From assembly GCA_041320515.1 (NCBI GenBank), contig JBGLNR010000001.1, positions 578,405 through 642,404 on the forward strand: DNA of 64,000 nucleotides. Direction: 5' to 3'. Below the pieces are notes generated by a model that was given only the letters and a program-made list of their open reading frames with translations, had not been told where the DNA came from and did no database searches. This DNA comes from Planctomycetota bacterium. GTDB taxonomy: Bacteria; Planctomycetota; PUPC01; DSUN01. Below are positions 8,573 through 55,553 of this stretch, one piece after another (positions within the stretch are counted from its first letter, which is position 1; each line of letters starts with the position of its first letter). The translations under genes were made by a program, and so were the position numbers.

Positions 8573-8617
8573 CCCGCTCCCCCCAACGACCGTTCGGATT
8601 GCTGAGGGCGCATCGGC

Positions 8618-8646
8618 AGTATCGCGCTCCCGCCGCCGCTTGTCAA
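8618..8646 (-). promoter_or_regulatory. sigma70-like promoter TTGACA-N17-GATACT (minus strand) with a conserved 5'-UTR
   Basis: Reverse complement reads TTGACAagcggcggcgggagcgcGATACTgccgatgcgccctcagcaatccgaacggtcgttggggggagcgggATG. It is almost identical to the region upstream of the 8757..9386 paralog. Confidence 0.65.
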
Positions 8647-8756
8647 CCGCGCACCGACCAGAAGGGCAGCAGTCCGCGGTTGCTCCGAATCGAGGCAGGG
8701 GCAGTGCTGGTGCTTATCGAACTCCTCAGTTGGTGATCCGTCCTATGAAGCCGCGG

Positions 8757-9386
8757 TCATTCGGGTCCATATGTGTTCCTGACACGCTTAGACGCCCTGA
8801 AGTACAGCCACCAGATCACAAACCAGATCACCGAACCGAGGAGGGTCTTAGGCAATTCTGCCAGGAACGCGTCCCGAACTGTAGGAGGCAGGTCATGAGC
8901 CATCAGTGGTATGCTGCCGGCATGCAGCACACTCCCAAAGAGCCTGACCAGGAGGAACTGTCTTGCCAGCCGCCTCCCATTAGGGTTGCCCGCCCAAATC
9001 ATGCAGCCAATCGCAAATCCATAGAGAAGCAGGCCCCCGGTCACGATCACGTCAACTGCACAGATGTAGCCCAGGGCCGGATACGACTCGAGCGCCCCAG
9101 ACGACGCTACCTCTCTCCACTTCAGCAGATCAGGAAGTGTGGATAGGGGAGCCAGTACCGTTAAGCCAACGCAGAAGAACGCCAGCCAGCCGCCGACACC
9201 AGAGACCTCTGGCTTTGGGAGGGGCAACAGTGCCTTCTCGTCAATGGCCCCCCCGCTGACCGCTGTGTCCACACTTGCCTCGGATACAGAGCCTTTGCGT
9301 CCGCAGGAATAGCATCGGTGTTCACCTCCAGCGTACCCCTCGTCGATTTCGTAGCGCGCGCCGCACGGGCACTTGAACGTGATCAT
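8757..9386 (-). CDS. MJ0042-type zinc-ribbon membrane protein, short paralog (4 TM)
   Basis: 209-aa ORF. 'MITFKCPCGARYEIDEGYAGGEHRCYSCGRKG' is followed by a linker and four hydrophobic helices. Confidence 0.75.
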   Translation of the reverse strand: MITFKCPCGARYEIDEGYAGGEHRCYSCGRKGSVSEASVDTAVSGGAIDEKALLPLPKPEVSGVGGWLAFFCVGLTVLAPLSTLPDLLKWREVASSGALESYPALGYICAVDVIVTGGLLLYGFAIGCMIWAGNPNGRRLARQFLLVRLFGSVLHAGSIPLMAHDLPPTVRDAFLAELPKTLLGSVIWFVIWWLYFRASKRVRNTYGPE

Positions 9387-9431
9387 GCCGCTTCCCCCAA
9401 CGACCGTTCAGATTGCTGCGGGCGCGTCGGT

Positions 9432-9460
9432 AGTATCGCGCCCCGTCGCTCGAAAGTCAA
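9432..9460 (-). promoter_or_regulatory. sigma70-like promoter TTGACT-N17-GATACT (minus strand) with a conserved 5'-UTR
   Basis: Reverse complement reads TTGACTttcgagcgacggggcgcGATACTaccgacgcgcccgcagcaatctgaacggtcgttgggggaagcggcATG. It is a paralog of the 8618..8646 promoter. Confidence 0.65.
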
Positions 9461-9738
9461 GCCCCCACAACACCTGCAAGCCGTGGCGACCCTGTCCCTG
9501 GCGCTTGGAGCACACCACCCTCGTTCTCTGACTCGCTTGCCCCTTCGTCGCGGGGCATTGGGGCCGGGCTTCTCGAGCGTAGCACGTGGCCGAGCAAGGC
9601 GTCGAGCCGAGCGGCGACGCGGGCGAGGCTGGGCCTGCGCCGATGCTACCGCGCGAGAACGGAGAAGTCAAGGGGCGCGAGGAATAGGGGCCATACTCAT
9701 GCGCGGCTTGCCCCCTCCACGAGCCGACACGCCCCTCG

Positions 9739-11142
9739 TCACTTCTTGCGCTCCGGGCCTTTCTTCTTGGGCGGCGGGGCGGGGCTGTCGAAGAGGGGAG
9801 GGACAAGTTCCTTGTCCCAGGCCGCGTAGGCGGCGACGAGGCGCTTGAGGATGTCGGGGTGGGCATCGGCGACGTTGGCGGTCTCGCGCGGGTCGGCCTC
9901 CAGGTCGTAGAGCATGGGGTCGCCGAGGCCGGTCTTGACGATCTTCCAGCGGCCCTCGCGGACGGCGTAGCTTGTGCCGCCGCCGGTGCGCCAGAAGAGG
10001 CGCTCGTGGGGCGGCGTCGCCCTTTCGCCCGTCACGTGCGGGATGAGATTCACCCCGTCAATCTTGCGGTCGGCGGGCAGTTGCGCGCCAGCCACGGCCG
10101 ACGCAGTGGCGAAGAGGTCGAGGGAGATGACGGGGTGCGCGTAGTCCTTGCCCTCTGGCAGGCGGCCGCGCCACTGGGCGGCGAAGGGGACGCGGATGCC
10201 GCCCTCGTGGAGCGCGCCCTTGCCGCCGCGGAGGATGCCGTTCGTGGCGCCGTAGCGGGTGGGGCCGCCGTTGTCGCTCAGGAAGACGACGAGGGTGTCG
10301 TTCTCCAGCTTGACGTCGCGGAGCGTGGCCAGGAGCAGGCCGACCCCATCGTCCAGCGCGCTCATCATGGCGGCATAGGCGCGGCGGCTGGGGTCCTCGA
10401 TCCTGGCGAAGCGGGCGAGATACTTGTCGGGGGCCTCGAGCGGCGTGTGGGGCGCGTTGTAGGCGAGGTAGAGGAAGAACGGCTTGGCCGCGTGGCGGCG
10501 CACGAAGGCCGCGGCCTCGCGCGAAAAGGCGTCCGTCAGATACTCGGTCTCCACTACGGGCTGGCCGTTGCGCTCGATGGGGATGAGGTATTCGCGGGTC
10601 TCGCCGGCGGGATTGGCCTTGAAGTAGTTGTGCCCGCCGCCGACGAAGCCGAACTGCTCGTCGAAGCCGCGCTTGAGGGGGTGGAACTCGGGCGCGCCGC
10701 CGAGGTGCCACTTGCCCACGATGCCCGTCACGTAGCCCGCCTGCTTGAGCACTTGGGGCAGGGTCGTCTCGGTGAGGGGCAGGCCAGCCTTGCGGTCGGT
10801 GGCGTCGTAGCGTGGGTTGTTCTCGTGCCCGAAGCGCTGCTGGTAGCGTCCCGTCAGCAGGCCGGCCCGCGTGGGGCTGCAGAAGGGGTGCGACACCAAG
10901 CCGTTGGTGAAGCGCACCCCGTGCTTGGCGATGGAGTCGAGGTTTGGGGTCGGGATGTCCTCGCAGCCCATGAACCCCACGTCGCCCGAGCCCAGGTCGT
11001 CGGCGACGATGAAGATGATGTTGGGCTTGCGCCCCGCGGCCGCCTCGGCGCCCCATGCCGCCCCGACTCGGGAGGCGAGGAGTCCCGCGAGCCCTCCAAT
11101 GGCCGCCTCCACGAACTCGCGGCGGGTGCGACTCGGACTCAT
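9739..11142 (-). CDS. arylsulfatase (Cys-type sulfatase family) with Tat-like signal
   Basis: 467-aa ORF. 'IIFIVADDLG…CSPTRAGLLTGR' carries the C-x-P-x-R formylglycine motif. 'GKWHLG' is also present. The N-terminus (SRTRREFVEAAIGGLAG) looks like a twin-arginine signal. AAGGAGG Shine-Dalgarno lies 7 nt before the ATG. Confidence 0.9.
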   Translation of the reverse strand: MSPSRTRREFVEAAIGGLAGLLASRVGAAWGAEAAAGRKPNIIFIVADDLGSGDVGFMGCEDIPTPNLDSIAKHGVRFTNGLVSHPFCSPTRAGLLTGRYQQRFGHENNPRYDATDRKAGLPLTETTLPQVLKQAGYVTGIVGKWHLGGAPEFHPLKRGFDEQFGFVGGGHNYFKANPAGETREYLIPIERNGQPVVETEYLTDAFSREAAAFVRRHAAKPFFLYLAYNAPHTPLEAPDKYLARFARIEDPSRRAYAAMMSALDDGVGLLLATLRDVKLENDTLVVFLSDNGGPTRYGATNGILRGGKGALHEGGIRVPFAAQWRGRLPEGKDYAHPVISLDLFATASAVAGAQLPADRKIDGVNLIPHVTGERATPPHERLFWRTGGGTSYAVREGRWKIVKTGLGDPMLYDLEADPRETANVADAHPDILKRLVAAYAAWDKELVPPLFDSPAPPPKKKGPERKK

Positions 11143-11170
11143 CGTTCACCTCCTTGGCGCGCACCTGTCT

Positions 11171-11228
11171 GTAGTGCGGCCTTCAGGCCGTATCCTCGCG
11201 AGACGGGCTAAAGCCCGCACTACAAACT
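11171..11228. repeat. REP-like hairpin (GTAGTGCGGCCTTCAGGCCGTATCC … GGGCTAAAGCCCGCACTAC)
   Basis: Same family as 3292..3366. Lies between the stop of the lipoprotein gene and the start of the sulfatase gene, both on the minus strand. Confidence 0.8.
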
Positions 11229-11231
11229 GAC

Positions 11232-12407
11232 TCACTCTCGAAGGCGCTCTGAGCGGCCGAGCACCTTGCCCAGGGCCTCGATGCGGGCGGCGCCCTCGGA
11301 GAGGGTGGGGCAGAGCCAGCCGCCCTCGTCGTGCTCGTTCCACGCGTAGATGATAACGGCCTGGGCGGGGCACACAAGAGGGTTGTCCCGTGCCCAGTCC
11401 ACGGCGCGGCCGACGTGCGCGGCCAACTCGGCGGGCGTGGGAGCCAGATAGTGCTTCTCGATGCCGACGCCGGGCTTCTGGTGCTTCTCCCACGGGACGG
11501 GGTGCTCGACGCGCGGACGGCGGTCCCAGCCCGACATGGCGATGGGCACGACGGACTTGCCGGTGGCCTTGCACTGGTCCCAGAAACGCTCGGCGTGCTT
11601 GGCAAGGCTCGCGTAGGGCGTGCCGTTGCCCGCCGCCTGCGTGGCGTAGGCGCTGAGGGCGTCGAGGCCCAGGGCGTCGGCCAGCTTCTTGCCGCGTGCG
11701 GCTGAGAACTCCATGAGGACGATGTAGGGGTTGCCGAGGCCGGCCTTCTGGGCGTCGGCGCGGAACTCGTCGAAGAGCTTGCGGGCGCCTTCCGCGCCGC
11801 CCCAGGCGTTCAGCCAGTTGTCACTCATGAAGCCCACGTAGAGGAGCGGGCGATTGCCGAGGACGCGCTGGTAGCTCGGCTCGGCCATGAGCTTGAGGAA
11901 GCGCTCGACTTTGGGCCGATGGGTGTCGGGCGTGCCCCACCTGCCGCACTCGGTGAGGAGGCAGAAGCGGATGCCGCCTTTTCGGGCGCTGGCGAGGTAG
12001 GCCTTGAGGGCGAGGCTCATCGAGGTGTCGGGCTCGTAGGTCACGAAGGCCCAGTAATCCAGCCCCGCCTGGCGGGCGTAGGCAATCTCCTGGTCCACGA
12101 TCTCCTGGGAGTAGCCGCGGATTTCCACCTGGGTGTCGGAGACGGCCTTGCCGAAGAAGGGGATGCGGGCGTGCCAGCGTTTCGGGCCGAGGGCGCGCTC
12201 GACCGCCTGCCCCGGCACCCCCTGGCCCCCGTGCCAGGCATCCCAACGGATGGCGCCGACGAGCGGCCGCGAGGGAGAGCGCATCATATCAGACTCCTTC
12301 GGTGCCGGCTCGCCGGCGCATGCGGCAAGCGCAAGCGCCGGGACAAGCACCCAAGCGGCCGAGCGTCGGGGGTCATACGTGAGTGCTATAGCTTGCCCCC
12401 TGTTCAC
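11232..12407 (-). CDS. lipoprotein, putative glycoside-hydrolase-like TIM barrel
   Basis: The first ATG of the ORF (12530) is preceded in frame by a lipoprotein signal. AGGAGG is followed 7 nt later by GTG at 12407, giving M-NRGQAIALTYDPRRSAAWVLVPALALAAC. The mature part (…AIRWDAWHGG…YWAFVTY…WNEHDEGG) is glycosidase-like. The exact family is not recognised. Confidence 0.6.
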   Translation of the reverse strand: MNRGQAIALTYDPRRSAAWVLVPALALAACAGEPAPKESDMMRSPSRPLVGAIRWDAWHGGQGVPGQAVERALGPKRWHARIPFFGKAVSDTQVEIRGYSQEIVDQEIAYARQAGLDYWAFVTYEPDTSMSLALKAYLASARKGGIRFCLLTECGRWGTPDTHRPKVERFLKLMAEPSYQRVLGNRPLLYVGFMSDNWLNAWGGAEGARKLFDEFRADAQKAGLGNPYIVLMEFSAARGKKLADALGLDALSAYATQAAGNGTPYASLAKHAERFWDQCKATGKSVVPIAMSGWDRRPRVEHPVPWEKHQKPGVGIEKHYLAPTPAELAAHVGRAVDWARDNPLVCPAQAVIIYAWNEHDEGGWLCPTLSEGAARIEALGKVLGRSERLRE

Positions 12408-12528
12408 GCGATGGCCTCCTGCGGGTGCTGGCGCCCGGCCCGCATGGATTATACCCCACCAGGGAGCAAGAGGGAAACGCCACTTCCCGCTCTTGACGCC
12501 GGCCGCGGAAACGGCATGATGGGGCGGC

Positions 12529-14097
12529 ATGAGAGCCTACCACGATCTCCACGCGTACTTCGGCGACCTGCACAGCCATTGCGGCATCTCCTACGGCCAC
12601 GGCTCGCTCGGCGAGGCCCTGGCCAACGCCCGCGAGCAGCTCGACTTCTGCTCCGTGACCGGCCACGCCCACTGGCCCGACATGCCGCCGCCCGACCCGC
12701 GCATCCAGCACATCCTGGACTTCCACCACGAGGGCTTCGCAAAGCTCAAGGCCGGCTGGCCCGCCGTGCTGGAGACGCTCCGCCGGGCCAACGAGGAGGG
12801 GCGCTTCGTCGTCTTCCCCAGCTTCGAGATTCACTTCTGCGCCACGGGGGACCGCACGGTGCTCTACCGCGACCTGGGGGGCGACATCCTCTACGCGGAC
12901 GATCTGGCTGACCTGCACCGGCGCCTCCGCGACCTGGCAGCGCAGGGCAAGGCCGCCATCGCCTTCCCCCACCACCTCGGCTACCGCCGCGGCGCAAGGG
13001 GCATCAACTGGGACGCCTTCGACCCCGCGTTCGCGCCCATCGTCGAGATCGTCTCGATGCACGGCTGCTCGGAGGGGAGCGAGAACCCGCGGCCCTTCCT
13101 GCACTCGATGGGGCCGTCGGACTGGGAGAGCACGGTGCAGTTCGGCCTCGGGCAGGGCCACGTGTTCGGGGTCGTGGGCGGCACCGACCACCACAGCGCC
13201 CATCCCGGCAGCTACGGCCACGGCCGGGCCGCCCTGTGGGCCACGGGCCTCACCCGCGAGGCCCTATGGGAGGCGCTGATGGCGCGGCGCACCTGCGCCC
13301 TGACGGGCGACCGCATCGCGGTCCAGTTCGCCCTCAACGACGCGCCGATGGGGGCCGTCGTGCCGCTCGCGCGGCAGCGGCACATCGAGATTCGGGCCGA
13401 GGCCGGCGGGGCGATTGACTGCCTGGACCTCGTGAAGAACAACCGCCTGCTCCGCCGGTGGTCCGAGTGCGACGTGCCGCAGGCCGCGCAGGGGTCACAT
13501 CTTCATTTGGCACTTGGCGGCGAAGTGCGAAATGAAGATGTGACCCCGCTGCGCACGAAGCTCTTCCTCGAGGTCGGCTGGGGCGAGAAGCGGAGGGAGA
13601 CGGCGTGGGACGTGTCCCTCGGCATCTCCGAGGGGCGCATCCTGGCCGTCGAGCCGCGCTTCCGGGGGCAGGAGGTCGTCTCCCCCATCGAGAAGGAGGC
13701 CGGCTCGTCCTCCCGCTACTACACCTCGCACTGGGAGCGCGACGGCGAGCGGGCCGTGCGCTTCACCACGCGAAGCATCGGGCACCCGAACAACGTGACG
13801 AACGCGGCGCAGGGCATGTGCCTGGAGGTCGAGATGCCGCTGGCTGGCGGGGTCGAGGCGGTCCTCAACGGCCAGCGGGCCGCCGTCCCGTTGCGGCGCC
13901 TCGTCGCGGGAGCCAAGAGCGGCAACCTGGGCGGCATAGACTCGCCCGCCTGGCGCCTCCACCGCGCCCCGCTGCCGTGGGAGTTCGGCTGGGAGGTGTC
14001 GCTCGACGACGCGGACGACGCCCCCGCCTTCTACTACGCCCGCGTGCGGCAGAAGAGCGACCAGTGGGCCTGGGCCTCCCCCATCTTCGTGCGGTGA
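12529..14097 (+). CDS. DUF3604/PHP-like metal-dependent phosphoesterase-fold protein
   Basis: 522-aa ORF. 'FGDLHSHCGISYGHG' and a later 'GGTDHHSAHPGSYG' follow the PHP/DUF3604 histidine-cluster pattern. Divergently transcribed from 11232..12407. Confidence 0.7.
   Translation: MRAYHDLHAYFGDLHSHCGISYGHGSLGEALANAREQLDFCSVTGHAHWPDMPPPDPRIQHILDFHHEGFAKLKAGWPAVLETLRRANEEGRFVVFPSFEIHFCATGDRTVLYRDLGGDILYADDLADLHRRLRDLAAQGKAAIAFPHHLGYRRGARGINWDAFDPAFAPIVEIVSMHGCSEGSENPRPFLHSMGPSDWESTVQFGLGQGHVFGVVGGTDHHSAHPGSYGHGRAALWATGLTREALWEALMARRTCALTGDRIAVQFALNDAPMGAVVPLARQRHIEIRAEAGGAIDCLDLVKNNRLLRRWSECDVPQAAQGSHLHLALGGEVRNEDVTPLRTKLFLEVGWGEKRRETAWDVSLGISEGRILAVEPRFRGQEVVSPIEKEAGSSSRYYTSHWERDGERAVRFTTRSIGHPNNVTNAAQGMCLEVEMPLAGGVEAVLNGQRAAVPLRRLVAGAKSGNLGGIDSPAWRLHRAPLPWEFGWEVSLDDADDAPAFYYARVRQKSDQWAWASPIFVR
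13491..13547. repeat. 57-bp near-perfect palindrome embedded in frame in the DUF3604 CDS (25-bp arms, 1 mismatch, with a nested 6-bp inner stem)
   Basis: GGGGTCACATCTTCATTTGGCACTT-GGCGGCG-AAGTGCGAAATGAAGATGTGACCCC. The segment is locally AT-richer than the gene. It encodes 'GSHLHLALGGEVRNEDVTP'. 57 nt equals 19 codons. Confidence 0.85.
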
Positions 14098-14782: not shown

Positions 14783-15118
14783 TCAAGGATGCCGCCGTCC
14801 GCCGGCCCGTTGTTTCGCGCGATTGGCGCAGACGACGTACATCGCATGGCACTCGCCGCATTCCTCGACCGCGTGGTCAGCGGCGAATGCCTTCCAGTGG
14901 CGGCGCTGCGCGGGCGTGAGGATGCCCGTGCCCTTGCACAGCGGGCACGCGCCGTCGAGCGCGGCCAGCACCGCCGCGCGGATGAACTCCGAGCGGTTCG
15001 CGATCCCCCGCATCGCCTCGACGAGCGAGGCATCGCCCTTGAACGTGATGATCTCTTGCTTGCCGCGCTTCGCTGCCACGTGGGCTCCCCGCAACCAACT
15101 GTTCGACCCATCCCGCAT
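14783..15118 (-). CDS. ribbon-helix-helix (CopG/NikR-like) DNA-binding protein with C-terminal Cys4 cluster
   Basis: 'KQEIITFKGDASLVEAM…NRSEFIRAAVLAAL' has the RHH beta-alpha-alpha pattern. It is followed by 'CPLCKGTG…ECGECH'. The likely true start is the GTG at 15079, which has GGGGAG 5 nt upstream. The ATG at 15118 coincides with the predicted transcription start. Confidence 0.6.
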   Translation of the reverse strand: MRDGSNSWLRGAHVAAKRGKQEIITFKGDASLVEAMRGIANRSEFIRAAVLAALDGACPLCKGTGILTPAQRRHWKAFAADHAVEECGECHAMYVVCANRAKQRAGGRRHP

Positions 15119-15123
15119 GCACT

Positions 15124-15152
15124 ATTATTACAAAGTATTACCGCCTTGTCAA
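15124..15152 (-). promoter_or_regulatory. sigma70-like promoter TTGACA-N17-AATAAT (minus strand) for the RHH/membrane-protein operon
   Basis: Reverse complement reads cTTGACAaggcggtaatactttgtAATAATagtgcATG. Both hexamers are near consensus. Confidence 0.65.
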
Positions 15153-15162
15153 GGCCATTCGC

Positions 15163-16587
15163 TCAGTCGTCGCCCCGGTTCTCCAGCCTTGCGAAGGGTT
15201 GCTGGAGCCTCTGTTCGGCATAGGCGGCGGCCGAGCCGATGCGGAGGCCGTACTGGTCGAACGACCATCCGCCCTGCCCGGCCGTCGCGGCCCTCTTGTA
15301 GCACTGGACCGCTTCCTCTCTGCGGTTGAGGAGATCGAGGACATGCCCCTGCCAGATCAGGGCCACTGCCTGACGCGACCTGTCGTCGCCCGCCTTCTCC
15401 AGCATCTTCCGGAACACGGCCAACGCGTCCTCGTACTTCTTGACATCATAGAGCGCGAACCCTGTCTTCAGAAGCAGGTCGGCGTCCAACTGGTCGGGCC
15501 ACGTCGCGGCATACCGCGCCGCGAGTCTCTCGCTCGACTTGCGTCCCCAGCCGCACGCCCGCACGATGCGGTCCGGCGAGTTCTCCCGCGCGGCCATCCA
15601 CGCGGCAAGGTGCGCCTTCCAGCGCGCGAGATCGAGCTTTGGCGGGTGGGCCATGAACTCCTCCACGGCACCGAAGAAGCGCTCCGGCTCGTCGCCGAAG
15701 GGGCTGTGGCCCGACCGCTCGAACATCACGAGGCGAGAGCCAGGGAAGCACGCCTGGAGCTTCTTCGGCTTGTCCGTGTTCCAGGTCAGGTCCCACTGCC
15801 CCTCCAGAAGGAGCACTGGGATCGGGCAGTTCTCGAACGCCCCACGCAGGTCAATCTCGCCCGACAACTGTCGGCAGATGCTTCGGCGGAATGCCTCGTC
15901 GTGCTTCCACTCGTAGAGGGCGCTCCGGGCGAACTCCTCGTTCGATGGCCTGTAGTAGCTCTGCCGCTTCCAGTCCCCATTGAGGTGCGCGTTGTAGACC
16001 CGTTGGGCCAGCGTGAGCCCCTGCTTCCCATAGACCGCTGAGATGCTCTTCCTCTCCGCTGCGGACATGTAGTCGAACTGCCTCGTCGGCTGGAGGCGGA
16101 GGTGCATGGCATCGGTGGCTGCCCCCACCAGGAGCAGCCCGGCCACGCGTTCGGGGTGCTCCACGACGTAACACTGTGCGACGACGCCGCCGTAGGAATG
16201 GCCGAGCACCACCCACTTGTCGAGCCCCAGCGCGGCGCGGAGCTTGTCCAGGTCCGCGACCGCCTGCTCGATCGTGTAGCCCTTGCCCTTCACATAGCCC
16301 GAAGCCCCGCACCCTCTCTGGTCGTAGTAGACCACTCGGGCGAAGCGAGCGGCTTGGGAGAAGTGCGGGTGGAAGCAGTGATGGGTGGCCCCCGGCCCGC
16401 CGTGGATGAGCACCAGGGGCGGCCCTTGCCCCTCCAGCTCGCAGTACAGCTCGCAGTCGCCAATGCTCACGCGGCGCTTCTCCAGCTTCAGCGCGTCGCA
16501 CAACGGCGGCACGGCTGGGACCTCCAGGGTCTTGCCCTCGATGTGTACCTTCCTGTCAAGCACCGTTTCACGCTGGCCATCGGGCAT
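15163..16587 (-). CDS. alpha/beta hydrolase (proline-iminopeptidase-like, HGGPG + GHSYGG) fused to a C-terminal TPR domain
   Basis: The start is taken at MPDGQRETVL (ATG at 16587, GGAGG upstream). The 5' extension of the 758-aa ORF has no protein-like composition. The nucleophile elbow GHSYGG and the 'LVLIHGGPG' oxyanion motif are present. Confidence 0.8.
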   Translation of the reverse strand: MPDGQRETVLDRKVHIEGKTLEVPAVPPLCDALKLEKRRVSIGDCELYCELEGQGPPLVLIHGGPGATHHCFHPHFSQAARFARVVYYDQRGCGASGYVKGKGYTIEQAVADLDKLRAALGLDKWVVLGHSYGGVVAQCYVVEHPERVAGLLLVGAATDAMHLRLQPTRQFDYMSAAERKSISAVYGKQGLTLAQRVYNAHLNGDWKRQSYYRPSNEEFARSALYEWKHDEAFRRSICRQLSGEIDLRGAFENCPIPVLLLEGQWDLTWNTDKPKKLQACFPGSRLVMFERSGHSPFGDEPERFFGAVEEFMAHPPKLDLARWKAHLAAWMAARENSPDRIVRACGWGRKSSERLAARYAATWPDQLDADLLLKTGFALYDVKKYEDALAVFRKMLEKAGDDRSRQAVALIWQGHVLDLLNRREEAVQCYKRAATAGQGGWSFDQYGLRIGSAAAYAEQRLQQPFARLENRGDD

Positions 16588-46339: not shown

Positions 46340-46984
46340 GTCACCTCTTCTCCCCTCCCAGACGCACACACCCACGACCCACAAGCAGAAGCAGACCGCC
46401 CTCCGCGATCCTAACACTTTCCTGTGCCGGTTGCCATCGGAAATGCACGGGAGCCAGGCGGGCGGTCACAGCAGGTTCCAGATCAGCTCCGCCAGTTTTT
46501 CGGGGTCGTGGCGCAGGAGGTCCTGCTTTTCCCACAGGATGCGCTTGTGGTCGAGGTTCTCGACGAGGTCGTCGAGGATGATCTGGACGCGGTGGGCGCC
46601 GAGCTGGTCGTCTATGCGGACGAGTTCGGCCGCCTCGCCGTGGTAGCGCGCGAGGATGGCCATCCTCGGCCTGCCCCCCACCATCTCCATCACCGACAAG
46701 AGCGGCGTGGCCGGCATCGCCGCCTGGCTCGGCCTCGAACTCCGCGAGCAAGGCGTCCAGATCGCCAAGGACCACCCTGGCGTCATCGCCATCAAGGACT
46801 CCGTAGACGCCCAATTCGCCTCCGGCCGCCTCACCGCCATGTCCCGCGAAGAACTCCTCCTCCTCGCCCGCAAACACTTGCCCGAACACTTCGGCCAGTG
46901 AGCGCGCGCAGTCAAAGAGGGCAGAGGGCAGACGGCAGAGGGCAGAGGGGGAGGTCGAAGGAAAGAGCCGGCCCGCGGAACACG

Positions 46985-47065
46985 CGAGATGCCGCGAAAC
47001 GGAAGCGGCGGTAGGGCGTGCAAACCTGCACGCGGAACGCGAGACCCGAAACGCGAAACCGATTC
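46985..47065. repeat. GC-rich dispersed repeat (…CGGTAGGGCGTGCAAACCTGCACGCGGAACGCGAGACCCGAAACGCGAAACC…), inverted relative to copies at 49500..49680
   Basis: Its reverse complement matches GTTTCGCG…TTCCGCGTGCAGGTTTGCACGCCCTACCG found twice at 49530-49680. Contains a CGTGCA-ggtt-TGCACG hairpin. Confidence 0.8.
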
Positions 47066-47122: not shown

Positions 47123-47260
47123 ATGGCCGCGGACAGGAACCACGCCGGCACTGCCGAGGTATGGGTCGTCGACCCCGCCTGGCGCACCGTCAGCATCTAT
47201 CGCTCTGCGAACGACATGCACACCCTCACCGAAGGGGATGAACTCGTCCCTCCCCTACCT
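47123..47260 (+). pseudogene. C-terminal fragment of a Uma2-family (DUF820) endonuclease
   Basis: 'AEVWVVDPAWRTVSIYRSANDMHTLTEGDEL' is the characteristic Uma2 C-terminus. No N-terminal portion is present, and the upstream ORF sequence is not protein-like. Confidence 0.5.
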
Positions 47261-49030
47261 CAGAGCTTGTGTGACGCGGTACAGCGCAATGCTATCTCCT
47301 TCCCTCTCCGTGGCCAAGTACTCCAGCACGCCGTCGGAGCGGAACACAGGACCGCAGGCGACCTCATGGAAGTTTGGCCCTGGCTGGTGATCGAGGACCA
47401 CAAGCTGCCTAGTCACCTTCCTTGCCCCATATGCGACATGGCGCCCGTCGGCACTTAGCGTGAGGGTGCCTTCGCCGATCGCGTCATGCGGCGGCCCTGG
47501 CCGACCATCCACAACGACAAGTTGTTTGTTGCCCTTCCCGGCAGAATACGTCAGGTGTTGGCTGTCGAGACTGAACATTGGCCCGGCCTTGGCGATTGCC
47601 TCGAACTCCGGCCCGGATTGGCCATCCACAACCACGAACTGCTTGTGGCCTGCAATTGCCCCGTACGCTACGCGGTGCCCGTCTGGGCTGAAAACGAAGG
47701 TACCTACTCCGTCGTATTCGGGGCCTGCCTGGCCATCCACGACCACGAGCTGCTTCCCTCCACGCAAGGCCACATATGCCACGCGCCCGATCGCGCTGAA
47801 CGCAGGGAAGCCTTTCGCGATCTCGTCATACTCCGGCCCTGGCTGGCCGTTGACCACCACAAGCGCCCTGTCGCCTTTCCTGGCCGCGTATGCCACATGG
47901 CGGCCATCGGCACTCAGCACAGGGGAACCCGTCGCAATCCCATCCCAACCTGGTCCGGGTTGGCCATCCACCACGACATGCCACTCCTCTCCCTTCTTGG
48001 CTGCGTACGCCACGTGGCGACCGTCAGCACTAACGGTAACCCCAGCAACAACGTCGCAAGGCGACTCGGGACGGCCATCTACCACAACGACCGCCTCCCC
48101 ACCATGGCTGGCTGTGTACACTATGCGGTGGCCATCCGCACTGAAAACTGGCTCGCCTTTGCGAATGCCGTCGTATTCCGCCCCTTCCCTGCCATCAACG
48201 ACCACAAGCCACTTCGCGCCCCTCCTGACTACATATGCCACACGCTTGCCATGCGCACTGAGCACAGGGGACCCTTGAGCCATCCCATCGTACACCGGCC
48301 CTGGCTTGCCATCAGCAACCACGAGCCACTCCCCACCCTTGCTTGCCGCATACGCCACGCAGCCGCCGTCGCTACTGAAGACGGGACTGCCTTGCCCAAT
48401 GGCGTCGTACTTGGGCCCGGGCTCACCATCCACGACCACAAGGCGGGCCATCCCTAAGGTGGCCAAGTTCTCCCTAAAGGCAACGTATGCCACATGCCGA
48501 CCATCTGGAGAGAAAACGGGGCCGCCTACGCCAATGTTGTCGTACTCAGGCCCGGGCCGGCCATCCACAACGACGAGGACCTTCTCACCCCTCCTCGCCA
48601 CATATGCCACGCGTCGGCCGTCGGGAGAGAGAACGAGGTCGCCCTCGGGAATCCCGTCATACTCCGGGCCTGGCCGGCCATCGAGAACAACGAGTCGCTT
48701 CTCGCCGCGCTGCACCACCGCAGCGATCCGGCAACCATTTGAGGTCGCCGACCTGACGACCCGAATAGGCTCCGCAGGAAGCAAGCCCAGCCGCTGTTTC
48801 CGGATGGGCGCGCAGGAGACACCCACCCCAGCCACTGCCGCGCCATCGGGTGTGCCATCCGGCCGGCTGTTCTTGCCCTCGTCTGTTGCCGGTGATCTGC
48901 ATGTTCGGGCAAGAATGGCCACCGTGGCCAGGGCCAGGCAGAACGCCCCAATGATAGGAACCAACAGCCTGCGGTCACCTGGGTGTAACACTACTCTGTT
49001 CTTCCTCATCGCAAGACGATCCGGCCGCAT
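47255..49030 (-). CDS. membrane-anchored beta-propeller protein with ~12 PD40/TolB-like repeats
   Basis: 591 aa. N-terminal TM segment (LLVPIIGAFCLALATVAILA), then a reiterated ~45-aa unit 'LVVVDGQPGPEYDGI..GSPVFSPDGRHVAYAA.KG'. Confidence 0.8.
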   Translation of the reverse strand: MRPDRLAMRKNRVVLHPGDRRLLVPIIGAFCLALATVAILARTCRSPATDEGKNSRPDGTPDGAAVAGVGVSCAPIRKQRLGLLPAEPIRVVRSATSNGCRIAAVVQRGEKRLVVLDGRPGPEYDGIPEGDLVLSPDGRRVAYVARRGEKVLVVVDGRPGPEYDNIGVGGPVFSPDGRHVAYVAFRENLATLGMARLVVVDGEPGPKYDAIGQGSPVFSSDGGCVAYAASKGGEWLVVADGKPGPVYDGMAQGSPVLSAHGKRVAYVVRRGAKWLVVVDGREGAEYDGIRKGEPVFSADGHRIVYTASHGGEAVVVVDGRPESPCDVVAGVTVSADGRHVAYAAKKGEEWHVVVDGQPGPGWDGIATGSPVLSADGRHVAYAARKGDRALVVVNGQPGPEYDEIAKGFPAFSAIGRVAYVALRGGKQLVVVDGQAGPEYDGVGTFVFSPDGHRVAYGAIAGHKQFVVVDGQSGPEFEAIAKAGPMFSLDSQHLTYSAGKGNKQLVVVDGRPGPPHDAIGEGTLTLSADGRHVAYGARKVTRQLVVLDHQPGPNFHEVACGPVFRSDGVLEYLATEREGDSIALYRVTQALR

Positions 49031-49499: not shown

Positions 49500-49680
49500 A
49501 GCGTAGGGACGAGAGGTGTTTCGGGTTTCGCGTGGTTTCGCATGTTCCGCGGGCGGTTCCGCGTGCAGGTTTGCACGCCCTACCGGCTGCGTGAGGAAGA
49601 GGGTTCCGCGTTGTTTCGCGTGTTCCGCGGGCGGTTCGGCGTGCAGGTTTGCACGCCCTACCGGTTCCGCCATCCGTGCC
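49500..49680. repeat. two direct copies of the GC-rich repeat (GTGTTCCGCGGGCGGTTCCGCGTGCAGGTTTGCACGCCCTACCGG), plus CATCCGTGS x3
   Basis: Read directly. Inverted with respect to the copy at 46985..47065. Together they bracket the beta-propeller gene. Confidence 0.8.
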
Positions 49681-49819: not shown

Positions 49820-49978
49820 CTATAAGGAAGCCAGGAAGGCAGGTAAGGAGTGGGCGAGATGAGAATGCCAGAGCAGTGAAGGCCCCTTGAGGTGGACGCG
49901 CCGAGGGGCTCCTCGGCTGGGCAAGGGGGCAGCCCGTTCCATCCTTCGTCCTTTCCTGGCTTCCTGAGTTCCTTATAG
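49820..49978. mobile_element. MITE-like element (~160 bp) bounded by ~20-bp terminal inverted repeats CTATAAGGAAGCCAGGAAGG / CCTTTCCTGGCTTCC(tgagtt)CCTTATAG
   Basis: The inverted repeats are read directly. The internal part has no ORF and contains a small GC hairpin (CCGAGGggctCCTCGG). Confidence 0.5.
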
Positions 49979-50836
49979 CCCTTTCTTTCCCCGCGGCTCC
50001 TCGCCGGGGTCGGGGCGCGGGGGGATGTTGGGGCCGTGGATGTGGGGGGAGAGGCGGCTGAGGACGTGGGCGTAGGCCAGGAGGTCGGGGGGGAAGAGGC
50101 TGCGGGCGTTGAGTTGGTGCAGGAGGAAGAGGTAGAAGAGGAGGAGTGTGTCCGGGCCGGAGTCGTACCAGCCGAGACAGGCGTCCTCGAGGTGGCTGGT
50201 GGGCGCCCAGCCGCCGCTGCGCTCGACGGGGAGAAAGTGGTAGACGAGGGCCTTGTCGAGGACGCAGATGCAGTCAATCCAGGCGTCGGGGACCTTGCCG
50301 CGGTGGAGTTCGGCGAGCCTCGGGACGAGGGCGGTGGAGATGTTTGGGGCGTTGAGGGCGAAGACGGCGGCGAAGGGGGCGGGGTTCTCCTTGGGGCCGT
50401 GGTAGAGGGCGTGGCCGTCGTGCTGGGCGACGATGGCGTGGCGGAGGAGTTTCTTGGCGGAGGTGGCGTTGACGACGGACTCCTCGAGTTCGTGGGAGTC
50501 GAGGAAGGGGGTGAAGGCGATGGCGGCGTAGACGGCTTCGGCAGGGAAGATGCGGGAGGCCGCGGAGTCTTGGAGGAGCGGGGCGTGGTGGGCGTCGTAG
50601 ATCACGATGTCTATCTGCTTGCTGTACCAGCCCTGGGAATCCACGATTTCGCCCGTGCCGACGCCGTAGCAGGGGGGGAGGTAGCGGACGAGGAAGTCGC
50701 GGAGGACTTGCTCGCGGCGGACGCCTTTTTCGGCGGAGTGGACTCCGCCGACGGATTCGGCGTCGAAGCTGACGCGGAGGGCCTTGGCGATGGCGCGGAA
50801 CTTGGCTCGCAGGTTCAGGGGCACGTGGTCGGGCAT
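49973..50836 (-). CDS. hypothetical protein, possible PD-(D/E)XK-type nuclease (DUF6602-like)
   Basis: The start is at the second ATG, with GGAGAG 8 nt upstream. '…GTGEIVDSQGWYSKQIDIVIYD…' resembles a restriction-endonuclease-like core. The assignment is tentative. Confidence 0.5.
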   Translation of the reverse strand: MPDHVPLNLRAKFRAIAKALRVSFDAESVGGVHSAEKGVRREQVLRDFLVRYLPPCYGVGTGEIVDSQGWYSKQIDIVIYDAHHAPLLQDSAASRIFPAEAVYAAIAFTPFLDSHELEESVVNATSAKKLLRHAIVAQHDGHALYHGPKENPAPFAAVFALNAPNISTALVPRLAELHRGKVPDAWIDCICVLDKALVYHFLPVERSGGWAPTSHLEDACLGWYDSGPDTLLLFYLFLLHQLNARSLFPPDLLAYAHVLSRLSPHIHGPNIPPRPDPGEEPRGKKGL

Positions 50837-50965
50837 GCGGAGTCTCTCCGGGGGGTGACGGGTCTCCCGCATCGGATGATAGGGGGGCGGTGGCGAGTTG
50901 TCAAGTCGGCCGCCGGGCTGAGGACGCGCGGGACGGCTGCAGGCGACCGTGCCTGGCTTCCGTGC

Positions 50966-50993
50966 TTGACATTCGGGCTCAGATGGCTAGAAT
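50966..50993 (+). promoter_or_regulatory. strong sigma70-like promoter TTGACA-N16-TAGAAT
   Basis: gcTTGACAttcgggctcagatggcTAGAATgcagg lies 55 nt upstream of the first gene of the HExxH-protein operon. Confidence 0.65.
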
Positions 50994-51048
50994 GCAGGTA
51001 GAGAGGTGGTCGAGGGGGGCCTCGGGGAGCCCGTAGGGGAAGCTGCCG

Positions 51049-51396
51049 TTGCTGCGCATCCGCAGGGAACAGATGGCGGCGTTCGAAGCGCACTCGATGC
51101 GGCGGTACGAGGACCGCGTGATTCGGAAGATCGCGCGCGCGTTCCCCATACGGTACAAGCTCGATGGCGAGGAGGGCACCCGCAAGTTCGTCCAGGCCGG
51201 CATCCGCAAGGCCGGGGGGTACGGGATCGCGGCGGACGACGACGTGGAGCGGTTCATCCTGGTGCTGGCCGAGCGGGGCATGGACTTCGAGCAGGCCCCC
51301 GGGATGGCCGAGTGCCGGAAGATTCTCGAGAACAAGGACTTGCCACCCGACGCGAAGGTGGCCTTGGTTTGCCGGCGGCTTCCCCCGGCGTTCTAG
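51049..51396 (+). CDS. small hypothetical protein (115 aa), first gene of the operon
   Basis: Protein-like composition. The start is ambiguous (MLRIRREQMAAF…). No family recognised. Confidence 0.5.
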   Translation: MLRIRREQMAAFEAHSMRRYEDRVIRKIARAFPIRYKLDGEEGTRKFVQAGIRKAGGYGIAADDDVERFILVLAERGMDFEQAPGMAECRKILENKDLPPDAKVALVCRRLPPAF

Positions 51397-51418
51397 CGAC
51401 GCACCGAGGACACACGCC

Positions 51419-54400
51419 ATGCCTGGAAACGCCACAGTGAAGTGCCCCAAGCAGTTCGGGCATCTCTACGTCGAGGTCCGGCGCCAGAACAGGAAGGTCA
51501 GCGCCCAGTGGGACACACTGAAGACCCCCTGCACGCTCAAGCTCACGGGCGGCAAGGTGGACAACCGGGACGCCTCGACGGCGGACTCGACGACGTACGA
51601 CAACCTGTGCGCGGGCGGCTACACGCTCAACCTTACGCCGGCGACCGAGGAGACCGAGTGCGATATCGAGGTGGAGATCGAGCAGAAGGGGACGCCGAAG
51701 ACGGCCGGAGTCGCCGTTGGCGCGAAGAAGCCGAGCAGCGGGGTGACGATCGAGCACGAGAAGACGCAGATGCAGTACTTCCGGTTCTACCCCTACGAGC
51801 TGCTCGTGGAGGTGGTGGCCAAGGACACGAAGAAGAAGCTCAAGGGTGTCACGGTCAAGGCGACAGCAGTCAAGGGCGGGAAGCAACTGGCGGCGCAAGT
51901 GACCGGAGAGAACGGGTTGGCGGATTTCGGCGTTGTGGCCAGCGGCAGCCAGTACAACCTGGCGATCACGCTGAGCGAGGAGGACGCCAAGAAGTACGGA
52001 GCGGAGGAGAAGTATGGGCCGGCCCCGGCGAAGCGGTTCTTCAGCAAGCCTTACTTGCTCGAGGTAGACGCGGTCAGCAAGGTCACGCCGAAGATCGAGA
52101 TGGAGTACAAGGTGGTCCTGCTCGATCGGAACCTCGCGCAGTACCAGGAGACGGGCGAGGCCAAGATATATGCCGACCCGACGTACATCAAGCTGTCGCT
52201 CGAGCACAGCAACAGCGCGCGACTCTTCAAGAAGGGCGGCACGGTGAAGTTCGCGCCGGAGAATGTGGACGCGTACACGGACAAGGAGTGCAAGACGAAG
52301 CTGAAAGACAAGAAGCTGACGAACGACCAGCTCAAGAAGGGGCTGAAGCTGTACCTGAAGGGCAAGACGGCCGGCAAGTTCAACGTGACTCTGGACCTGG
52401 AGGACCCTGGCGACAAGATGCTCGCCCGCGAGAAGAACCCCGCCAAGGAGGAGATGGGGGTGGTGGAGCTGAAGGCGGAACTCCACCAGCACGACATGAC
52501 CGCGGTCGGCGCCATCAAGGTCGATCCGGACACCGATCCCATCGGCACGTATCACACGAATCTGAGGGACAAGGCCCTCCCCGCCCAGAAGGCGCTCACG
52601 GACCAAGAGAAGGTGAAGGTCGGGCGCCTGTTGCACGCACAGGCCGCGGGCAGCCACGGCCGCGCCAAGCTCCTGGTCAAGAAGATCGACGCCAGCCAGT
52701 GGCCGGATGGCACGGACGACTATGAGCTGGTGCTCAACAAGACCAATGTCAGCGGCGCCGTGGCAATCTACGACAAGGAGTTCGACGATCCCGCGCCGGC
52801 GGGTACGCTTCAGGCATTCCCAGTCAAGGCCAAGGTCAAGGACCTGAAGGCGCAGGATAAGGAGCTGTGGGTGGAGGGCACGACCGCGACCAAGAAGCGG
52901 CGCGAAGTGCGGCTGGACCTGGGGCTGGACCGGGCGGAGCCGATGGACAAGCACGCCACGAAGGAGAGCGCGAAGCGGAATGGCGACTGGGCGCGCTTCA
53001 CCGTGGTCAAGATCAACGAGGTCAAGCTGGACTATACCGCGCCCAGGGGCAAGGCCAACGCGTGGGATGCGGCTCGTGAGAGGTTCTACATCAACTTCAA
53101 GGCAGATTCGGACGGCCGGAAGGTGACGATTCAGGCCCAGCTTAGCGAGAAGATCAAGGACGTGACGCTCCACTTCATGCTGGCGGAGGACAAGGACAAC
53201 CGCCTGACCGCCAACTGGGGCGTGGACCTGCCCGCGACGTGGAAGTGGAAGGGCATCGCCGCGGCGGTCAAACACACAGACAAGGCGGACCGTAAGGACC
53301 TGCTGCACCTCTCGGCCACGACGGACGCCAACGGCAAGGCGAGCAAGGAACTGACCCTCTCGCGGTTCGGGGGCGACAAGTTCCTTCCTGCCTGCTACAT
53401 TGACCAGGACCCACACCTCGCCAAGTACATCCACGGGCATGCGGACCTGCAGAAGAAGAAGCCCGTGTTCGCCGCCAAGGCGATCAACGTGTGGCGCAAG
53501 TTCTGGTATAAGGAAGTGAAGGTCAAGGGGATCGTCGTGGCAGGCTTCGGGAATGCGGCCGATACATACGTCACTGTCAAGGCGGAGATGGTCGCCGCTA
53601 CGGCTGTGGAAATGACCCGTAACGCCGCGAATGCCCTGGCGACTCGCGCCATCTTCAAGAAGCACATGGTAAGCTTCTATCTGAATGACGCTGGGACAGA
53701 CTACGTCAACAACTACCCGAACGATAACGGGGATGCCCTTGTCGTGGGCGATGACAATGAGTCGAGTTTCTTCGCACTCGCGACGGCCGAGGCCGACAAG
53801 CCGGTCATGATCCCCATGCTCAATGCGCACGCCCTGTGGGTGGCCGACGGCGTGACTGCGTCTCAAGCCGTACCTTGGTTCAGAACAACCGGATTCCCGT
53901 TGAGTTTGACGGCCGACAAAGAACTCATAGACCCGCCGATACAGGGCGGCACTCTTTTCTCAGCCGGCCTATGGGTGGCGCAGGATTGGGACCCGGCTGC
54001 GAATGGCGGTGCGGGAGCATGGGGCAATGCGCGAAACGGTAATCTCGCCGCGGCGGACATTTCGCTGGATCCTGGCCGAAGCGATCCGAGGGCCTTCCAG
54101 GTCAAGAAGCCGGCGGGGATTGTGGTGTCGGCGAACGGTACGAGGGTGAAGATTGCGGGTCTGACGTTGCGGGCGGGGAAGACGTATCTGGGCACCTCCT
54201 ATGATGACGGAATCGTCAACTCTTATTCGCCGAATAACTTGCCGGATTTCATCGATACGATCGACCACGAAGTCGGGCACTCCTTCAAACAGGTCACCAA
54301 GGTCCGGCCGGCCGGCATCCCCGCTCATCCGAACCAGTACGACAAAGACGGATCGCACTGCAATTACAACAACAAGTCTTGCCTCATGTACGAGTCCGGC

Positions 54401-54478
54401 CCCCAAGCGACTGCGATACACCGGTATTGCTCTATCTGCCACCCCTATGTCCTTGTTCAGGACATGTCCAGCGTGTGA
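51419..54478 (+). CDS. large (1019 aa) lysine-rich multidomain protein with PEGA/carboxypeptidase-regulatory-like beta-sandwich modules and a C-terminal HExxH zincin-like metallopeptidase motif, no signal peptide
   Basis: The ATG at 51419 is in frame with the 1104-aa ORF, whose upstream part overlaps the small gene. 'TIDHEVGHSF…HPNQYDKDGSHCNYNNKSCLMYESG' lies near the C-terminus. N-terminal modules include 'YVEVRRQNRKVSA…TPCTLKLTGGK'. No signal peptide is evident. Confidence 0.75.
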   Translation: MPGNATVKCPKQFGHLYVEVRRQNRKVSAQWDTLKTPCTLKLTGGKVDNRDASTADSTTYDNLCAGGYTLNLTPATEETECDIEVEIEQKGTPKTAGVAVGAKKPSSGVTIEHEKTQMQYFRFYPYELLVEVVAKDTKKKLKGVTVKATAVKGGKQLAAQVTGENGLADFGVVASGSQYNLAITLSEEDAKKYGAEEKYGPAPAKRFFSKPYLLEVDAVSKVTPKIEMEYKVVLLDRNLAQYQETGEAKIYADPTYIKLSLEHSNSARLFKKGGTVKFAPENVDAYTDKECKTKLKDKKLTNDQLKKGLKLYLKGKTAGKFNVTLDLEDPGDKMLAREKNPAKEEMGVVELKAELHQHDMTAVGAIKVDPDTDPIGTYHTNLRDKALPAQKALTDQEKVKVGRLLHAQAAGSHGRAKLLVKKIDASQWPDGTDDYELVLNKTNVSGAVAIYDKEFDDPAPAGTLQAFPVKAKVKDLKAQDKELWVEGTTATKKRREVRLDLGLDRAEPMDKHATKESAKRNGDWARFTVVKINEVKLDYTAPRGKANAWDAARERFYINFKADSDGRKVTIQAQLSEKIKDVTLHFMLAEDKDNRLTANWGVDLPATWKWKGIAAAVKHTDKADRKDLLHLSATTDANGKASKELTLSRFGGDKFLPACYIDQDPHLAKYIHGHADLQKKKPVFAAKAINVWRKFWYKEVKVKGIVVAGFGNAADTYVTVKAEMVAATAVEMTRNAANALATRAIFKKHMVSFYLNDAGTDYVNNYPNDNGDALVVGDDNESSFFALATAEADKPVMIPMLNAHALWVADGVTASQAVPWFRTTGFPLSLTADKELIDPPIQGGTLFSAGLWVAQDWDPAANGGAGAWGNARNGNLAAADISLDPGRSDPRAFQVKKPAGIVVSANGTRVKIAGLTLRAGKTYLGTSYDDGIVNSYSPNNLPDFIDTIDHEVGHSFKQVTKVRPAGIPAHPNQYDKDGSHCNYNNKSCLMYESGPQATAIHRYCSICHPYVLVQDMSSV

Positions 54479-54488
54479 GGCACTGAGG

Positions 54489-55553
54489 ATGAAACGCTAT
54501 CCATGGATCCTGTGCGCCCTTGTTGTGTCAGGTTGCGGAGCGCCCGGTTGCTTCGTCTCAAATGCAGCCACAAGTGAGGTGAACGACATGACGACCAAAC
54601 AGAAACAGGCCGTGCAGATGCTGGACGTGCCGCCTGCTGACTTCTTCTCGTTCAATGAGGCCACACAGCTCAGGCTCCAAGAAGCCTTGAGCACGTTGGT
54701 CGGCGGCGGCGAGCCGCCAGGGCAGGCTGAGGCCGCGCCGCAACCCATTGTGGCGCTGGGTGCTCCAAAGCGCGTGGACATTGACAAACAGGACGTCGTG
54801 CCGCTCCTCCTGGGCCGCGTGCAGACAGGACTTCGCTCCTGGCAAGTCAACGACAGGACGAACCTGCACCTGTTTGTCAGAGAACTGGCAACCGGCGAGC
54901 TGTGGATTGTCCAGCCGCTCACCGACCTGCGCCGTGGCAAACTAGAGTTGCGGTCGGGCGCTGGGAAGCCGCCTGACGATTTGAATGCGCGGACCTTGCA
55001 GTCCTCCGTGACCTTCATCGATCTGCGGAAGAGACTTGATGGGCGCATGAAGGCGGGCCGATTTCTGGTCACGGCCGCTGCCTATGACGTGCTTTCCAAC
55101 AGCGTTGAAATCCACGTGGAGAGCAGCGCCGAACCCGTGAAGGCCGCCATCATGGCCACGCCACAGCCATACGTAACGCCTGTGCTCGACAAGCGCGCGC
55201 ACTTGGAAACCAGGGTTGAGGTGCCGAAGGAAGTATCCAAGGACGGCAGGGGCTCAATTGATGTCGCCATTCAGGTGAGCGAGGACAGCGGCGTACGCAA
55301 GGCTGAATCCGGGGACGCATTCTGGACCTGTCACCTGATACTCGTGAAACTCGATGCGCGACCCGATGTTGTCCCTGCGTCAGTGCCGGTGCAGGCGATC
55401 TCCACCGTGGATGGGAAGTCGGCATTCAACGCGGTGTTCCGGCTCGATCTCGCCGCGATCGCGAAGACCACGGAGGCCGGACAGTACCAAGTGTATCTGG
55501 ATGCTGGAGGAGGAGTCCTTGGCCCCTATCCGCTCGCCATCGGCGCCCCGTAG
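54489..55553 (+). CDS. lipoprotein of unknown function, immediately downstream of the HExxH protein
   Basis: Start MKRYPWILCALVVSGCGAP (lipobox LVVSGC) lies 8 nt after the preceding stop. 354 aa. No family recognised. Confidence 0.7.
   Translation: MKRYPWILCALVVSGCGAPGCFVSNAATSEVNDMTTKQKQAVQMLDVPPADFFSFNEATQLRLQEALSTLVGGGEPPGQAEAAPQPIVALGAPKRVDIDKQDVVPLLLGRVQTGLRSWQVNDRTNLHLFVRELATGELWIVQPLTDLRRGKLELRSGAGKPPDDLNARTLQSSVTFIDLRKRLDGRMKAGRFLVTAAAYDVLSNSVEIHVESSAEPVKAAIMATPQPYVTPVLDKRAHLETRVEVPKEVSKDGRGSIDVAIQVSEDSGVRKAESGDAFWTCHLILVKLDARPDVVPASVPVQAISTVDGKSAFNAVFRLDLAAIAKTTEAGQYQVYLDAGGGVLGPYPLAIGAP

Follow-up and report, generated by a model that had tools for sequence, protein, structure and literature searches.

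The question raised by the 64-kb stretch of Planctomycetota DNA analysed here (the window, ~67% G+C) is what purpose is served by three co-directional open reading frames (ORFs) of 115, 1019 and 354 aa which stand behind a near-consensus promoter. Scans of the three encoded proteins with Pfam, NCBIfam and PADLOC gave no significant family. We propose, with a probability of roughly 0.72, that this operon is a cargo effector module of type VI secretion (T6SS), made up of a helper, a metzincin-type metallopeptidase effector and a periplasmic immunity lipoprotein, and that it is present here as an orphan. A preliminary description of the locus had already pointed to the promoter, to a Lys-rich HExxH protein devoid of a signal peptide and to a lipoprotein encoded after it, and all three were found as described: the promoter has 11 of 12 matches, Lys makes up 10.4% of the large protein, in which HEVGH stands at aa 950-954, and the third protein has the lipobox VSGC with the lipidation site at Cys16. 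The parts of the operon are the following.

50966-50993, + strand: sigma-70-like promoter TTGACA-N16-TAGAAT, driving the three-gene operon
51049-51396, + strand: small accessory protein, 115 aa, TTG start, without a signal peptide
51419-54478, + strand: putative T6SS cargo effector, 1019 aa, metzincin-type metallopeptidase, without a signal peptide
54489-55553, + strand: lipoprotein, 354 aa, putative periplasmic immunity protein

The TTG start of the first gene lies 56 nt past the promoter, and only 10 nt separate the gene of the 1019-aa protein from that of the lipoprotein. Promoter-like sites are more frequent in this part of the window than in shuffled sequence, with five in a 7.5-kb region compared to 0.8 expected.

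Results

Conservation of the module and its linkage to type VI secretion

We collected 49 distinct homologous loci from a species-representative genome set and clustered all of their ORFs. These loci come from at least 8 phyla, and their carriers include Victivallales, Desulfobacterales, Acidobacteriota, Planctomycetota, Bacteroidota, Burkholderiales, Gammaproteobacteria (among them tubeworm endosymbionts and Teredinibacter), Myxococcota, Verrucomicrobiales, Krumholzibacteriota and Acetobacteraceae; most are free-living bacteria of soil, sediment or water. A homolog of the third protein is encoded directly downstream of the effector at 37 of the 40 loci with enough sequence, while the small gene is found directly upstream, on the same strand, at 34 of 47. 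The trio is a conserved three-gene module, always encoded on the same strand. Effector identity across phyla is 50-68%, which, judged from sequence comparison, indicates that the module spread horizontally, and its distribution is patchy.

T6SS markers (VgrG, PAAR/DUF4280, DUF4123, ClpV, TssF/G and TagH) were found within 10 kb at 18 of the 49 loci, and among loci with at least 5 kb of sequence on both sides the proportion was 13 of 30. VgrG was present at 10 of the 49 (Pfam Phage_GPD at 4.5e-89, together with gp5 domains), PAAR at five, a ClpV-type ATPase at six and the DUF4123 adaptor, confirmed by Pfam, at 18, with TagH and TssG in subsets of the loci. The order of genes is ClpV-VgrG-DUF4123-PAAR-small-effector-immunity in L036 and TssG-ClpV-VgrG-DUF4123-small-effector-immunity-DUF4280 in L012 (Planctomycetaceae bacterium), while in the Bacteroidetes loci L025 and L026 VgrG and, further on, PAAR-small-effector-immunity-DUF4123 were found. 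All three metagenome contexts inspected also contained T6SS genes, one of them with the module inside the T6SS core cluster. Among these contexts, L054-56 have the set DUF4280-small-effector-immunity between TagH and DUF4123-VgrG-ClpV-TssG-TssF. The search for secretion genes around homologs, which the preliminary description had proposed, thereby gave a positive answer.

Export signals of the third protein and their absence from the putative effector

Export signals are present on the third protein and not on the second. None of the 47 effector homologs read (40 and a further 7) has a signal peptide, and many of them have a tail rich in Lys and a 'CP' motif at the start. The third protein begins with MKRYPWILCALVVSGC, a lipoprotein signal, and two of its features need to be distinguished.

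54489-54536, + strand: lipoprotein signal peptide MKRYPWILCALVVSG, followed by the lipobox Cys
54588-54590, + strand: conserved Met34, start of the conserved mature region and a possible internal start codon

A signal peptide or lipobox (lipobox or type I) was found in about 31 of 33 proteins of this family. Upstream of the conserved part the region is open and hydrophobic in frame, with a median maximum Kyte-Doolittle value of 2.6 compared to 0.79 and 0.74 for the two alternative frames, so that, as far as sequence can tell, the family is truly exported, and where several gene callers have picked a shorter start, this start is wrong or incomplete. The callers take Met34 as the start in L001, L053 and L057 and in this way miss the signal peptide. 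This position is a Met in 33 of 37 aligned homologs and lies about 10-20 residues past the signal-peptide cleavage site; it may be a second, internal start which gives a cytoplasmic isoform. The third gene also shows the changes expected for immunity genes under diversifying pressure: in L021 (Cellvibrionaceae) an immunity-like gene is duplicated (12358-13458 and 14931-15866), and in L038, L044 and L046 a different and unrelated signal-peptide family (cluster 22) replaces the third protein.

Since the gene of an exported partner directly follows that of a signal-less, T6SS-linked hydrolase, the layout is the usual one for a periplasm-acting effector and its immunity protein. The preliminary description had compared the locus with a non-classically exported metalloprotease toxin accompanied by accessory and possible immunity genes, and the T6SS linkage, the signal-less effectors and the exported downstream family are in accordance with this view.

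The large protein and its catalytic domain

The 1019-aa protein has 79 homologs in a set of 5.8 billion proteins, all of them unnamed or labelled 'hypothetical'. An AlphaFold2 model made from a 40-sequence alignment is confident (predicted local distance difference test, pLDDT, 88), and the protein can be divided as follows.

51419-52051, + strand: N-terminal region, aa 1-211, variable, with two transthyretin/CnaB-like beta-sandwich domains after a 'CP' motif
52052-53470, + strand: central beta-rich region, aa 212-684, strongly conserved
53471-54475, + strand: catalytic domain at the C-terminus, aa 685-1019, with beta elements inserted in a metzincin fold
54266-54280, + strand: HEVGH zinc-binding/catalytic motif, aa 950-954, in a predicted helix (941-955)
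54356-54439, + strand: H980-C981-x6-C988-x-M990-x13-C1004-x2-C1007, with a third His ligand, a Met-turn and a Cys4 site, all putative

In the model a chain of beta-sandwiches makes up the N-terminal and central parts, with likenesses to CnaB/pilin domains, to the transthyretin-like domain of carboxypeptidase D and to immunoglobulin (Ig) folds of the macroglobulin or invasin type. The first ~210 residues differ among effector homologs. The region aa 212-684 is the best-conserved part of the family, with most of the invariant alignment columns and pLDDT mostly above 90; its structural matches are pilin, Ig-like and macroglobulin-like folds only. A role in spike/adaptor binding or in substrate binding is a candidate function for this modelled region.

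Comparison of the modelled structure places the C-terminal domain in the metzincin catalytic fold, with archaemetzincin as the closest fold and adamalysins/ADAMs, fragilysin and CpaA also among the closest. The zincin types suggested in the preliminary description, aspzincin and anthrax lethal factor-like, turned out to be wrong. The model puts HExxH on the active-site helix, as expected of metzincins, and downstream of it stands the pattern GSHC...C-L-M...C-S-I-C. Family alignments show H950, E951, H954, G978, H980, C981, C988, C1004 and C1007 to be invariant, while M990 and H970 are at least 90% conserved in the catalytic-domain family. By its position in the sequence M990, situated in C-x-M-(Y/F), is a candidate for the Met-turn downstream of the zinc site. 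A search of the PDB with the full protein sequence gave only spurious aspartase matches (E ~0.01), and the C-terminal profile gave a marginal match to the astacin myroilysin over the edge strand and HExxH (E 0.005). The Pfam model Peptidase_M54 matched neither the full protein (E<=1) nor the C-terminal 335 aa (E<=10). For this reason the domain is described as archaemetzincin-like and is not placed in M54.

At 50% identity the catalytic-domain family comprises 980 representatives, of which 205 reach E<=1e-30. The 150 representatives listed range in length from about 170 to 1700 aa, with many fragments among them, and nearly all have the domain at or near the C-terminus; one representative bears an added CBM5/12.

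The small accessory protein

The family of the 115-aa protein has a conserved N-terminus, ML.IR.EQ, has no Pfam match and consists of relatives which are all hypothetical. Its connection with the T6SS adaptor comes from L040, a Planctomycetota metagenome-assembled genome, where one ORF (~5980-4226, - strand), encoded divergently and adjoining the effector homolog, consists of DUF4123 (Pfam, 2.2e-31) and a C-terminal small-protein domain (hhalign, 98.7%, E 3.5e-16). In the tubeworm-symbiont loci L007, L008, L011 and L017 the small gene is missing and DUF4123 is directly upstream of the effector. Both genes co-occur at other loci, so the small protein does not appear to be a simple substitute for DUF4123, to which it is not homologous in spite of the single fusion. 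From its gene neighbours it is a putative effector-specific helper or chaperone, working with the DUF4123 adaptor.

The tubeworm-symbiont variant (~7840-13485) is made up of a 310-aa conserved protein of unknown family, DUF4123, the effector and the exported protein, and its effector is shorter (842 aa) and devoid of the N-terminal sandwiches. A further homolog of the small protein was found in Myxococcus sp. CA056 (L052, 10001-10693, beside dnaA), just downstream of a 1098-aa Peptidase_C48/DUF3626 protein. We considered whether the small protein is a general partner of other toxins, such as this Peptidase_C48 neighbour, and rejected it, as a 94-aa CarboxypepD_reg-like fragment adjoins the homolog. 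Because this fragment comes after the small-protein homolog, L052 more probably represents the same module in a decayed state.

Surroundings of the module in the window

Between tilS, a lyase, giant TPR/PKD proteins and carB, the module (51049-55553) has the lowest G+C content among the 4.5-kb stretches of the window, 62.0% compared to a mean of 66.8%, and for this reason the copy was probably acquired horizontally, as far as composition can show. Its AT skew, moreover, is strongly positive, an effect of Lys (AAG) codons.

On the opposite strand, divergent from the operon, 49973-50872 (-) encodes a stand-alone DUF6602/NucC-like PD-(D/E)XK nuclease (PADLOC: PD_DExK at 1.2e-30, NucC effector at 8.9e-28). 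This gene has its own near-consensus promoter, TTGACA-N17-TATCAT, at 50904-50876. As only 4 nt lie between the end of the -10 box and the annotated ATG, translation probably begins at Met13 (50836), the start called in L001. In the vicinity of the gene no cyclase or CRISPR (clustered regularly interspaced short palindromic repeats) partner was seen. The possible PD-(D/E)XK protein of the preliminary description is in this way identified as a nuclease; as a part of the conserved module it was rejected, as among the homologous loci only the same-species contigs L001 and L002 have it.

Further upstream a perfect 30-nt inverted repeat (47009-47038 and 49556-49585), within elements at 46971-47038 and 49523-49669, brackets a PD40-repeat gene. 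A second copy lies at 49634-49663 (97%), and on the downstream side two 69-nt units, 91% identical, stand in tandem. These repeats look like repetitive extragenic palindromic (REP) or miniature inverted-repeat transposable element (MITE)-like elements, in agreement with the MITE-like element noticed earlier. The bracketed gene (47255-49030, - strand) encodes a 591-aa protein of PD40/TolB-like beta-propeller repeats, with partial NCBIfam matches to TmcD-family repeats, and its DNA has a periodic repeat of ~117 nt in 7-9 copies with 60-76% identity.

Discussion

The proposed mechanism

From sequence we infer secretion, toxicity, compartment, substrate and immunity function, as well as the presence of a T6SS in this genome. 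If this is correct, the 1019-aa protein would be a T6SS cargo effector, in which loading or target binding is the likely task of the beta-sandwich N-terminus and central region, and the C-terminal metzincin domain is the likely toxic part. The 115-aa protein would act as an effector-specific helper alongside the DUF4123 adaptor machinery. The effector would be fired into neighbouring Gram-negative cells, where it would probably cleave some protein or peptide of the cell envelope, and the lipoprotein, situated in the periplasm of the producer, would neutralise effector arriving from sister cells.

Several observations weigh against this reading. By tblastn, the 64-kb window contains no VgrG, PAAR, ClpV, DUF4123, TagH or TssG, and the copy studied here is for this reason an orphan module. 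There is no T6SS marker within 10 kb at 31 of the 49 loci, many of them on short contigs, and none at the closest homolog locus, L003. The function is read from gene association and a predicted fold, as Pfam and PADLOC give no direct annotation. The contiguous metzincin motif HExxHxxGxxH/D is absent, the actual sequence being HEVGHSFKQVT, which lacks both the Gly at +3 and the His or Asp at +6; the invariant G-x-H(980) is reached only after a 25-residue loop past HExxH, and H980 is assigned as the probable third zinc ligand by analogy only. In ten unusual architectures examined with Pfam the catalytic domain was not fused to VgrG, PAAR or Rhs. Finally, Met34 could mean that the third protein is at least partly cytoplasmic, which would weaken the idea of a periplasmic target.

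Alternative explanations

The absence of T6SS genes from the window, from L003 and from the surroundings of most other loci would also be explained if the genes were a toxin/antidote pair which does not use a T6SS in this genome, either because the toxin leaves the cell by another non-classical exit (an extracellular contractile injection system, lysis or vesicles) or because the copy, stranded as an orphan, is retained chiefly for the sake of its immunity gene. We consider this unlikely, although it is the strongest of the alternatives. The effector gene is intact, has all of its catalytic residues and stands behind a near-consensus promoter; the secretion genes linked to the family are specific for T6SS (TssF/G, TagH, ClpV, DUF4123), and no contractile injection system of the extracellular kind was seen in the form of a sheath, tube or baseplate set. 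It is also common for T6SS effector modules to occur as orphans, distant from the core cluster. Slightly less probable is a T6SS-delivered or surface-acting protease directed, in the manner of ADAM or fragilysin-type metzincins, against proteins of a eukaryotic host or prey, with the exported downstream protein as its partner or chaperone and not as an immunity protein. Such a role is suggested by the presence among the closest folds of adamalysins/ADAMs, fragilysin and CpaA, whose substrates are extracellular proteins of eukaryotes, by the likeness of the beta-sandwich chain to adhesins and pilins, and by homologs in tubeworm endosymbionts, Teredinibacter and predatory Myxococcota. The exported downstream gene is, however, tightly linked, co-varying and sometimes duplicated or swapped, which is a hallmark of antibacterial effector-immunity pairs, and the carriers are mostly free-living. 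The two kinds of target need not exclude each other, as VgrG2b shows (PMC6899460).

A housekeeping or regulatory protease system of the envelope, or an anti-phage defence, with no role in interbacterial attack, is very improbable. The adjoining NucC-like nuclease is of a kind used in defence systems, and archaemetzincins are described as cytosolic enzymes of unknown role (PMC3427221). That nuclease is nevertheless not conserved beside the module, PADLOC matches none of the three proteins, the distribution is patchy and horizontally transferred in look where a housekeeping system would be universal, and the T6SS linkage is strong.

Significance

The reading of the operon as a T6SS cargo effector module can be extended to a wider claim, namely that it stands for a T6SS effector superfamily which spans phyla (with ~1000 clusters at 50% identity), has so far gone undescribed and has an archaemetzincin-like Cys4 core, a new adaptor-linked accessory domain and an immunity protein in two forms, an exported lipoprotein and a cytoplasmic protein starting from Met34. 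In this full form the claim is tentative and, taken as a whole, rather doubtful. Most likely, the toxin family is undescribed and its protease core is best known from archaea; in the literature library searched, nothing relevant was found on metzincins or archaemetzincins together with T6SS effectors.

T6SS effector repertoires beyond Proteobacteria are poorly known. The module would add to them a large family (the 980 representatives mentioned above), now annotated as 'hypothetical' or 'carboxypeptidase regulatory-like', with carriers in Planctomycetota, Acidobacteriota, Bacteroidota, Myxococcota, Desulfobacterota, Verrucomicrobiota and tubeworm symbionts. If the proposal is true, an archaemetzincin-type scaffold, whose physiological role is unknown, would be tied to interbacterial antagonism and, should the wider claim hold, would obtain its first clear biological context. 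The new accessory domain, once fused to DUF4123, could serve as a genomic marker for further cargo effectors, and the substrate of a periplasm-acting metzincin could expose a new weak point of the Gram-negative envelope.

Comparison with known systems

The catalytic domain is most similar to archaemetzincins (M54; AmzA of Methanopyrus and Archaeoglobus, human AMZ1/2), which have the consensus HEXXHXXGXXHCX4CXMX17CXXC (PMC3427221). The elements G-x-H-C, C-x-M and C-x-x-C are also present in the window family. The window family differs in the loop of ~25 residues between HExxH and G-x-H-C, where archaemetzincins have xxGxx, and in Cys spacings of x6 and x13 instead of x4 and x17. Archaemetzincins are also cytosolic enzymes of ~180 aa, whereas the domain found here is the C-terminus of a 1019-aa multidomain protein of a T6SS-linked family. 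Adamalysin/ADAM, ulilysin, fragilysin and CpaA are further away: they have the contiguous HExxHxxGxxH/D and disulfides in contrast to the Cys4 cluster of the window family, are eukaryotic or secreted through the general secretory (Sec) pathway or the type II secretion system (T2SS), and none is linked to T6SS. The motifs of the Tox-MPTase1-5 families (Zhang et al. 2012) also differ from those of the window family.

In gene order the module resembles cargo effectors dependent on DUF4123 (Tap-1/Tec), since VgrG-DUF4123-(PAAR)-effector-immunity is found in L012, L036 and L054-58. It differs from them in that the window copy has no DUF4123 and that in most family members an additional small protein, so far undescribed, is encoded between the effector and the adaptor/PAAR genes. 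The nearest functional counterparts, from the Tpe/Tpi family, are the C-terminal domain of VgrG2b of P. aeruginosa and Tpe1 of A. baylyi, periplasm-acting T6SS metallopeptidases whose toxicity needs the periplasm, with the immunity proteins PA0261 and Tpi1, which are periplasmic or lipoproteins and have lipoprotein homologs in Enterobacteriaceae (PMC6899460). No homology to the VgrG2b C-terminal domain was seen by sequence or among the top structural matches. The likeness is one of design: both are T6SS-linked HExxH zinc metallopeptidase toxins, putatively so in the window family, and in both the immunity gene, putative here, is directly downstream and its product is exposed to the periplasm, in some species as a lipoprotein.

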